This document shows positions 54,896-59,427 of a stretch of 64,000 bases of DNA, piece by piece. This DNA is from Promethearchaeati archaeon SRVP18_Atabeyarchaeia-1 (GTDB lineage: Archaea > Asgardarchaeota > Atabeyarchaeia > Atabeyarchaeales > Atabeyarchaeaceae), in NCBI GenBank assembly GCA_037308085.1, contig CP147779.1, positions 736,001-800,000 of the forward strand, written 5' to 3'. Under the pieces are notes generated by a model. The model was not told the DNA's origin and did no database searches. It was given only the letters and a program-made list of their open reading frames with translations. A program made the position numbers and the translations under genes. Position 1 is the stretch's first letter; the number at the start of each line of letters is the position of its first letter.

Positions 54896-56038
54896 TTAGC
54901 CTACTCCAATAGTGTTCCCGATACCGGCGACGATGACCGTTGAGCCAGGCTTTGTTCTTTCTTTGATTATCTGTCTGATTCTATCTGAAACCTTGTCGGC
55001 AGCGTCGCTTATTTCCTTCTTCATTGGCGTGACTGCCTCTTCAATTGCTTCCTTAACTAGAATCGCGTCTATGGGTATCTTGTACTTCACGGCGGCTTCC
55101 TCAATCTTGTACTTCTCAGGACCAGGATCTCCTATTGCGGCTCCGACACCCTCAACAACGTCGCCGGTCGTTTCACCCTCAAGTTTACCCGCTGCGTCGA
55201 CCATGATTATCCTGGAGATCTCTCCCTTGAACTCTTCGACCATCTTGGCGATTGCTTCCCCTGGCTTACCAACGCGACTACCTGGTCCCTTCGCCCTAAC
55301 GAGGATCACATTTCTGTCCTCAATCTTGATTTGTGCGACAGTAACCTCCTTCGCAACATCCTCGTTAACAATCGGTTCTAAGCCGCTCTTCTTGTACGAA
55401 TCCACGATGCGGGCGGCGACGAGCGGTCCAAGTCCATCGCCGATAGGCTTGCCTACGGAGAAGGCTTTTAGCGCTTCGAAGTATGACTTGGCGATCCTCA
55501 TGATTTGTGCCAGCTGCATTTGCACCTGCATCGTGATCATCATGTTCTTCTCTTTCTTGCTGAGAAGGTAGTAGTGCCTGATAACCTTGAAGATAAAGTA
55601 GACGGCGCTAGCTGCTTCAATCGACCCTTCGAGGTTCGAGGCCTCGTCCTTGCTGGCAGCAGGAGCCATCCTTGCAACAGCATCCTCGTAGCTTGATTTT
55701 CTAACGTCCAGAATGTGATCCAACCTTTGGATTACCCCGGCTGGATCGAGGCTGACAGGCTCGATTGTCACAAATTCCAGCATTCCAGCAACCGCCTTGG
55801 ATGGATCCTCTGAAGGTTTGCCAACATCCTTCACAGACTTTGTGAGGATCTCCTTAGACTCTACCGACATCCTGTCAAGCTTGAAGAGAGCCTGCTCTAT
55901 CTGCTTCGTCATCCTCCACACCTGAAGAGCATTGCCATAGAAAATGATGAAGAAGAAGAAGACAAAATACAGCATGTTGATTACCAGGCCGAGCGTATTA
56001 TCACTCGAACCGAACAACTGCAGTGGCACCAATCCCAT
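54896..56038 (-). CDS. DUF1512 family protein
   Basis: P..LDP.G, PIGDGLGPLVA, KGPG..VG.PG, VDAA.KLEGE.TG, G.AIG.PGPEK, GIGNTIGVG. Confidence 0.85.
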   Translation of the reverse strand: MGLVPLQLFGSSDNTLGLVINMLYFVFFFFIIFYGNALQVWRMTKQIEQALFKLDRMSVESKEILTKSVKDVGKPSEDPSKAVAGMLEFVTIEPVSLDPAGVIQRLDHILDVRKSSYEDAVARMAPAASKDEASNLEGSIEAASAVYFIFKVIRHYYLLSKKEKNMMITMQVQMQLAQIMRIAKSYFEALKAFSVGKPIGDGLGPLVAARIVDSYKKSGLEPIVNEDVAKEVTVAQIKIEDRNVILVRAKGPGSRVGKPGEAIAKMVEEFKGEISRIIMVDAAGKLEGETTGDVVEGVGAAIGDPGPEKYKIEEAAVKYKIPIDAILVKEAIEEAVTPMKKEISDAADKVSDRIRQIIKERTKPGSTVIVAGIGNTIGVG

Positions 56039-56240
56039 ATTACTGGTCTCCTATCACAGTGTTGATCCTTCTCATTTACTCTCAAAGACTAGCATGATTT
56101 GACTCCAGCTTTTTATAAACTTGTGTGTTTAGGCAATCGAGAAGGCAAGGCATTCGGTCGATTCCCGCAACACCAGAAAGAATCCACGCGCAGCTCCCAC
56201 TACCAGCAACCCACGGATGAAATGCCCCGAGAAACAAAGA

Positions 56241-56418
56241 GTGGCAACAATCCGTGGTCGGAACGGGAACGGGTGTTACCCCTCGCCTATGACCGGCGGC
56301 GCACCGCCAGCCGTCCAAGCTTCCCGAGAGATCTCTCATCTCAGTACAACTTGCACCGCGCGAGGACTTAACTCTCACGGCCGAGGTTGGCACCTGGTCG
56401 GCTCTCACGTGTTGCCAC
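56241..56418 (-). rRNA. rrf: Circularly permuted 5S rRNA gene: 3' segment 56373-56304, 4-nt linker, 5' segment 56299-56251, flanked by a BHB-forming leader and trailer
   Basis: Rejoined sequence CCGCCGGUCAUAGGCGAGGGGUAACACCCGUUCCCGUUCCGACCACGGA|AGUUAAGUCCUCGC...GUACUG...CGGGAA...GGCUGGCGG has the 5S hallmarks and is 119 nt; 9-bp leader/trailer stem. Confidence 0.85.
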
Positions 56419-56448
56419 CAAAGGTACGTGTATTATCAAAGAATAGTT

Positions 56449-56456
56449 CTTATAAA
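56449..56456 (-). promoter_or_regulatory. TATA box for the permuted 5S rRNA gene
   Basis: TTTATAAG on the minus strand, about 30 nt upstream of the leader stem. Confidence 0.55.
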
Positions 56457-59330: not shown

Positions 59331-59427
59331 GGGCGGGTAGTCTAGATTGGTATGATACAGACGGTGAAGTCCGTCGTCAATGTGGCTCGGGACCACGTGG
59401 TCGTGGGTTCAAATCCCACCTCGCCCA
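59331..59427 (+). tRNA. tRNA-Pro(CGG) with a 23-nt intron at 27/28 (59359-59381)
   Basis: GGGCGGG/CTCGCCC-A acceptor; BHB with TGAT/GTCA helix and AC|A, AT|G bulges; spliced anticodon arm CGTGG-CTCGGGA-CCACG; GTTCAAATC T loop. Confidence 0.9.

Follow-up and report, generated by a model that had tools for sequence, protein, structure and literature searches.

An Asgard archaeon with a circularly permuted 5S rRNA gene and a probable BHB mini-intron at its rejoining point

The 5S rRNA gene of the Asgard archaeon Atabeyarchaeia-1 is circularly permuted, and exactly at the point where the two parts of the molecule are to be rejoined it carries 30 additional nucleotides which are probably a mini-intron of the BHB type. 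In the species group, mature 5S appears without these 30 nt. Very likely, BHB-type cleavage takes them out, with the inner one of two repeated acceptor half-sites as the place of the cut. Concerning the order of events, a ring-first pathway in two steps, in which a 153-nt ring still containing the insert would be closed before the insert is dropped, is probably the main route.

Layout and identification of the 5S rRNA gene

The window, which is the whole stretch of DNA analysed here (64,000 nt), is contained in DNA runs of freshwater-sediment and wetland metagenomes. According to the genome description, Atabeyarchaeia-1 is a complete Asgard genome of 2,808,651 bp from wetland soil (PMC11291895). 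The GTDB order comprises only this genome (G000), G001, and G002, of which G000 and G001 belong to one genus and G002 to the sister genus. A scan of metagenomes added L135, L136, and L137, so that six members of the clade could be compared.

On the minus strand, the TATA-like box is followed by the leader, a first CGTG+AGA, a hairpin, a second CGTG+AGA, and the 3' part of the 5S, which starts at 56373 (AGTTAAGTCC...) and runs unbroken into the 5' part (...GGTCATAGG...CCGACCACGGA, last base 56251), behind which T + TGTTGCCAC (56250-56241) is found (Table 1). The arrangement is that of a permuted gene, with the 3' part upstream of the 5' part and a leader/trailer helix with a BHB. This helix covaries across lineages (GATAGCAGCACCG/CGGTGCTGCTATC, GGTAGTATCG/CGATACTACC, and GGTGCAACGCCG/CGGCGTTGCACC). 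The TATA-like box is predicted to act as promoter, and AAGTTTATAAGAA is kept in G001, G002, and L135-137.

Table 1. Predicted elements of the permuted 5S rRNA gene and of the insert at its rejoining point, in window coordinates and in the direction of transcription.
Feature	Coordinates	Strand	Details
TATA-like box TTTATAAG, predicted promoter	56449..56456	minus	Upstream of the leader; read directly in the sequence
Leader strand GGTGGCAACA of outer helix h	56410..56419	minus	Partner is the trailer, 56249-56240; helix in the MFE structure
Outer acceptor half-site	56403..56409	minus	Predicted cut 56404/56403; H strand CGTG 56409-56406 and bulge AGA 56405-56403
Putative nested mini-intron, 30 nt	56374..56403	minus	A + hairpin GCCGA / 13-nt loop / TCGGC + CGTGAG
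Inner acceptor half-site	56373..56379	minus	Predicted cut 56374/56373; H strand CGTG 56379-56376 and bulge AGA 56375-56373
Circularly permuted 5S rRNA body, 123 nt	56251..56373	minus	3' part from 56373; natural ends joined at ~56304-56299; 5' part ends at 56251
Donor half-site	56250..56256	minus	Predicted cut 56251/56250; H strand CACG 56256-56253 and bulge GAT 56252-56250
Trailer strand TGTTGCCAC(T) of outer helix h	56240..56249	minus	Complement of the leader; T-rich tract after it; in the MFE structure

Standard 5S models miss the permuted gene, and Rfam does not give any 5S match at the gathering threshold. An E-value based Rfam scan yields two adjacent half matches to RF00001 with 23.6 and 22.2 bits. 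Beyond these two half matches of the permuted gene there is no other 5S signal in the whole 2,808,651-bp genome, and the circularly permuted gene is the sole 5S of this genome. The second half match pairs the trailer sequence GGTTGCTGGTAGTG (56198-56212, minus strand) with the 3' end of the 5S, while the real end is GGCTGGCGGTG. The trailer sequence may be the relic of a tandem duplicate behind the permutation, or the similarity may have arisen by chance.

Two other genes of the window were recorded. Directly downstream of the 5S gene, a DUF1512 protein of 380 aa (PF07431 + PF23542) is encoded at 54896-56038 on the minus strand. This neighbourhood is conserved, as the DUF1512 gene is the next gene downstream of the 5S in G000, G001, G002, and L135-137, and it is located nearby in the distant locus of H2M.176 (L025, 52% identity). 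A 97-nt tRNA gene with large inserts is found at 59331-59427 on the plus strand, which Rfam scores at 39.8 bits, passing over 39 nt in the D region; ARAGORN gives no anticodon for it. Its large inserts fit the heavy tRNA intron load published for the genome, which according to its description has introns in 92-95% of its tRNA genes, often at non-canonical sites (PMC11291895).

The insert and its splice half-sites

The initial annotation of this DNA had placed the motif CGTGAGA twice on the minus strand (56409-56403 and 56379-56373), with a GCCGA/TCGGC hairpin between the copies and an intron of 30 nt (56403-56374). The coordinates of the motif are exact, the hairpin consists of GCCGA (56402-56398), a 13-nt loop, and TCGGC (56384-56380), and the intron string could be reproduced letter by letter. 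The full repeat comprises 8 nt, CGTGAGAG, at 56409-56402 and 56379-56372. In the 64 kb this 8-mer was counted six times on both strands together, compared to 2.8 expected occurrences, and the probability of finding two same-strand copies 30 nt apart is roughly 0.002 as estimated from the 64-kb counts. With these counts, chance does not account for the pair of copies. The stem of the hairpin is flush with both bulges. When the 23-nt core was shuffled 100,000 times, a flush stem of at least 5 bp arose in 416 cases (p ~0.004). The folding energy of the hairpin taken alone is not significant, neither in G000 (z -0.76) nor in G002 (z -1.81), where the construct reaches past the insert into the 5S body.

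It had also been proposed that a new BHB is created when CACGGA, which ends at 56251, is joined to A56403. This could be confirmed, as the joined sequence reads CACG-GAA-GCCGA...TCGGC-CGTG-AGA-GTT. The junction after ligation contains a 4-bp helix, CACG/CGUG, and the 3-nt bulges GAA and AGA on opposite strands. Both bulges follow their helix strand on its 3' side, so that the layout is that of a BHB, and it is also found in G002. On the intron side, the flanking helix of this second BHB is GCCGA/UCGGC, flush with the bulges. On the exon side there is only GAC/GUU with 3 bp including one G.U, a relaxed form whose helix is the same in the insert-free relatives. The complete inner BHB motif exists only in the ligated form. 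EndA cuts a BHB after the second bulge base, and a cut at this base is the only one to result in CACGGA|AGUUAAG, the junction present in the RNA contigs and in the Rfam 5S consensus. When the 2.81-Mb genome was searched for other copies of the insert, only short matches at chance level were obtained. Since there is no second copy, nothing points to a family of mobile introns.

Transcript evidence

The RNA data are Logan contigs of four metatranscriptomes, and as assembled contigs they drop rare forms. The wetland run X12 (wetland metagenome, study P6) does not contain any matching contigs. In two peat runs and one sediment run, the contigs cover exactly 56251-56373 and nothing outside. Metatranscriptome contigs that are 98-100% identical to the 5S carry CACGGA|AGTTAAG without the insert. 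For example, record 14 of X19 matches 56251-56328 with 100% identity and goes on with AGTTAAGTCCTCGCG, the reverse complement of CGCGAGGACTTAACT, and so shows the junction 56251|56373. Record 9 of X18 (152 nt) extends from 56273 to 56251 and then from 56373 to 56251, and differs at two of 123 nt, at 56339 and 56329, in a compensatory way. In these RNA contigs, 56251 is directly joined to 56373. Within the limits of contig data, the 30 nt do not belong to the mature 5S, and their borders are exact and intron-like. The RNA donors may lack the insert in their DNA, although no insert-free relative closer than 91% to the 5S is known.

Cyclic contigs of 152-153 nt correspond to the 123 nt plus a wrap of k-1 and span the rejoined junction as well as the natural 5S ends. 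The 5S may remain circular, or the contigs may stem from a mixture of ring or precursor forms with mature ones. On its short side the wrap measures 15-23 nt, which is below the bridging threshold of 31 nt, and these sequences are contigs and not single reads. According to PMC12918454, circularisation is not known for 5S rRNAs. The intermediate junction CACGGA|AGCCGACC is not present in any of the contigs, loose ends included, given that contigs drop rare forms. The region 56374-56403, the leader, and the trailer are not covered by RNA contigs, whose gaps are no measure of absence.

Distribution of the insert and of the permutation

All six members of the clade have the 123-nt permuted 5S body and the same leader/trailer helix. 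The insert is a precise presence/absence polymorphism within this small clade. It is found in two of the six members, G000 and G002, and is absent from G001, L135, L136, and L137, in which the sequence reads leader-CGTG-A[A/G]A-GTTAAG without intervening bases. The homologous insert of G002 comprises 29 nt at the same site, is identical to that of G000 at 18 of the 23 core positions, and retains both half-sites, with CGTG+AGA as the inner one and CGTG+AAA as the outer one, where G000 has the bulge AGA. The hairpin of G002 is kept via a shifted register, with one base deleted and a C changed to G on the other arm, and its stem has 3 + 5 bp with a 2-nt bulge, whereas the stem of G000 has flush 5 bp with a short inner helix above. 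The number of insert-bearing sequences (n=2) does not allow statistical covariation for the insert. The trailer bulge GAU had been considered as a derived state tied to the insert and was dropped because it is also present in the insert-free G018.

In the tree of the syntenic downstream DUF1512 protein, G000 is placed next to the metagenome loci that are free of the insert (support 87/93), and below them the branching of G001 and G002 is not resolved. By this tree as well as by the GTDB genera, the insert is patchy in its distribution, which would be explained either by one gain and at least two precise losses, or by an exchange between the two wetland species that live together. Asgard tRNA introns are reported to be gained and lost in a similar way (bioRxiv 10.64898/2026.10.13.758758).

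Permuted 5S genes without the insert are found in the Odinarchaeia and in at least seven other Asgard families. A pattern scan of genome contigs mostly yielded bacterial chance or tandem matches, and the archaeal loci alone were used. The distant permuted 5S of the Odinarchaeia (L038, L054, and L086) have a covarying leader/trailer helix and the same layout of 4-bp helix and bulges. Further distant permuted 5S with these features were identified in 'Ca. Asgardarchaeum abyssi' (L056), H2M.176 (L025), G009 (L009), G018 (L161), G037 (L011), G057 (L163), G083 (L145), and G099. The central 4-bp helix changes along with the 5S sequence and is CCAG/CTGG in G083 and CAGG/CCTG in G057 instead of CGTG/CACG. 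None of the distant Asgard permuted 5S inspected has an insert at the junction, the acceptor half-site adjoining the leader helix as judged by eye. L148 (G151) and L162 (G085), also judged by eye, apparently are 5S genes in ordinary order. The initial annotation had offered, as a second reading, that an intron in the 5S was older than the permutation and seeded it. This has to be given up because the permutation is much more widespread than the insert, and the insert is a later addition.

Another extra segment was noted within the 5' part of the permuted 5S of G099 (L147:1585-1700; also in G098, and in L146, cut by the contig end), where about 30 extra nt are found in loop C. It contains the repeated TCATTCCG and a palindrome, ATGAAG...CTTCAT. 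This segment is a candidate for a second kind of 5S mini-intron.

Processing of the permuted precursor

In constrained folding, in which the cost of a pairing is its excess over the free MFE, forcing the outer CGUG:CACG costs 0.3 kcal/mol in G000 and 0.5 kcal/mol in G002, and forcing the inner CGUG:CACG costs 8.1 and 8.8 kcal/mol, respectively. The insert-free relatives have a single BHB that is composed of helix h, CGUG/CACG with the bulges A[A/G]|A and GA|A, and the inner helix GUU/GA[C/U]. In G000 and G002 this ancestral BHB is split by the insert. The outer CGUG directly adjoins helix h, like the single site of the insert-free relatives, and the inner CGUG adjoins the 5S body, 30 nt from helix h. 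Pairing of the outer CGUG with CACG rebuilds the ancestral leader/trailer BHB on the side of helix h, and the insert hairpin replaces the inner helix. Because the outer pairing is about 8 kcal/mol cheaper and rebuilds the ancestral BHB, an outer cut that is followed by removal of a nested intron is the most economical explanation.

The genome encodes two tRNA_int_endo paralogues (EndA) and one RtcB, and cleavage by EndA and ligation by RtcB are predicted. The two paralogues fit a heteromeric endonuclease. According to the abstract of PMC5829648, the (alpha-beta)2 endonuclease is one of two types that cut non-canonical introns. In the proposed mechanism, the leader GGUGGCAACA would pair with the trailer, and the outer CGUG with the CACG at the end of the 5' part of the 5S, forming a BHB as in the insert-free relatives. 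EndA, with its two paralogues, would then cut AG|A (56404/56403) and GA|U (56251/56250), and RtcB would close a ring of 153 nt (152 nt in G002). In this ring, CACG would be located just 5' of the insert and could pair with the inner CGUG, with the hairpin as flanking helix and with the bulges GA|A and AG|A. A second round of cutting and ligation would drop the 30 nt and leave the 123-nt 5S with the universal junction CACGGA-AGUUAAG. When the second BHB is forced in the ring, the energy is 7-8 kcal/mol above the MFE of the ring, so that it is not favoured by the nearest-neighbour model. The recursive splicing in two steps that had been suggested at the beginning is supported in part, namely in its BHB geometry, in the insert-free RNA junction, and in the preference of about 8 kcal/mol for the outer motif, while the order of the steps stays conditional.

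The same final product, which is the sole form in the RNA contigs, would also be obtained in one step if the 30 nt were just additional leader. CACG would then pair with the inner CGUG already in the linear precursor, the hairpin and the outer motif would be looped out at a three-way junction, EndA would cleave AG|A at the inner site and GA|U at the trailer, and the 123 nt would result from a single ligation, so that the 153-nt ring would not be formed or would be a minor by-product only. It speaks for this route that on its exon side the inner bulge is still flanked by the native GUU/GAC, as in the insert-free relatives, and that broad-specificity endonucleases tolerate relaxed motifs, according to the abstract of PMC5829648. 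However, in both species the inner pairing is less favourable than the outer one, by about 8 kcal/mol. The outer motif together with the leader/trailer helix represents the ancestral substrate base for base, and it is difficult to see how it could escape cleavage. In addition, this route would leave the flush stem (p 0.004) without any role, as well as the fact that G002 has kept the stem, and we regard the one-step route as rather unlikely.

Processing could also require three cuts and only one ligation. After the outer and trailer cuts the RNA would refold, the inner bulge would be cut as a half-site, a linear 30-mer would be freed, and RtcB would join CACGGA>p to AGUUAAG, a sequential process without an intron-bearing ring. 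This is compatible with the same anatomy and energetics, and the absence of the intermediate junction among the contigs would weakly agree with it. However, archaeal EndA normally places its two active sites on two bulges, and the second cleavage would have no intact 5' bulge. None of the data single out this route, which seems improbable to us. It is hardly to be expected that the insert is retained, either as a small expansion segment in some or all mature 5S or as a neutral duplication scar that disables part of the transcripts. The hairpin is compact, and expansion segments are a known trait of rRNAs in Asgard archaea (Penev et al. 2020, as cited in PMC12918454). Against retention, RNA contigs of 98-100% identity show the insert-free junction, the gene is the sole 5S gene, the insertion point is located in the conserved stretch CGGA-AGUUAAG beside helix III, and the exact BHB geometry would become an unexplained coincidence.

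Comparison with known systems

The two-step route via a ring resembles what is known of Cyanidioschyzon merolae, whose permuted tRNA genes also have the 3' half before the 5' half, a leader/trailer BHB, and an additional BHB intron. For its tRNA-Gly, which is permuted and bears an intron, amplification yielded a circular intermediate from which the intron had not yet been removed, and processing is orderly and sequential (Soma et al. 2013, PMC3728597), which lends precedent to the ring-first order. In contrast, the RNA of C. merolae is a eukaryotic tRNA, its intron is within one half and off the junction, and both splice sites are already present in the linear precursor. In Atabeyarchaeia the RNA is a 5S rRNA, the putative intron adjoins the permutation junction, and its 5' splice site would arise only after the circularising ligation. 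Like the 5S, the SRP RNA of Thermoproteus tenax is an archaeal non-tRNA structural RNA with a permuted gene, and it is cut by the tRNA splicing endonuclease and ligated to a circle (Plagens et al. 2015, PMC4731332, abstract). It is, however, another RNA from another phylum, for which no extra intron at the junction is described.

Archaeal BHB introns occur in tRNA and in 16S/23S rRNA genes, and in Atabeyarchaeia and Freyarchaeia the tRNA load is heavy and patchy (PMC11291895; bioRxiv 10.64898/2026.10.13.758758). The 5S insert resembles these introns in its length of tens of nt, its BHB boundaries, and its patchiness among close relatives, between which such introns are repeatedly gained and lost. 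Most archaeal BHB introns do not belong to sequence families, and the 5S insert likewise is single-copy in the genome. The difference is that ordinary BHB introns bring a self-contained complementary pair, while the two H-strand copies of the 5S insert are direct repeats that share one partner. A search of the genome description (PMC11291895) gave no mention of 5S rRNA, and neither there nor in bioRxiv 10.64898/2026.10.13.758758 are 5S rRNA introns or introns at permutation junctions mentioned. Literature searches for permuted or intron-bearing archaeal 5S did not find anything. The present analysis contributes the distribution of the insert, its energetics, and its possible origin, and the two-step mechanism is what we infer.

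Possible origin of the insert

The insert is bounded by the direct 8-nt repeat and by terminal inverted repeats of 5 bp. In G000 it contains GGTGCCAAC, which is one base off the leader sequence GGTGGCAAC and in a nearly collinear position (leader-like GGTG[G/C]CAAC). A similarity of this extent between leader and insert was reached in 66 of 5000 shuffles and needs a 5-nt gap. In G002 there is no such similarity (1724 of 5000 shuffles). It could be possible that the insert originated from duplication of the acceptor half-site, or that it was a small insertion with target-site duplication. That a BHB intron was born here by duplication of a splice half-site, of which the 8-nt repeat, the inverted repeat, and the leader-like GGTG[G/C]CAAC are the traces, is a tentative and somewhat doubtful idea. 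Because the ligation delivers the shared donor strand (CACG and its bulge), a direct copy of the acceptor (CGUG and its bulge) is sufficient to make an insertion spliceable. An insertion just past the leader cut site that carries such a copy would become removable at once, and selection would then only need to add the hairpin. If true, the archaeal lineage nearest to the eukaryotes would offer a concrete path by which introns are gained de novo, and recursive splicing would be obligatory on this path.

Conclusions

So far, BHB splicing has been treated mostly as a matter of tRNAs. Here, an Asgard archaeon has a sole 5S gene whose parts are predicted to be put back in order by the splicing machinery, and this machinery is probably required a second time to remove an intron. 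The 5' splice site of this intron is absent until the first ligation has occurred. If the order of the steps is confirmed, this would be an unusually clean natural case of recursive splicing in which a splice site is created by ligation, and it would show that a small duplication is able to turn into an intron.
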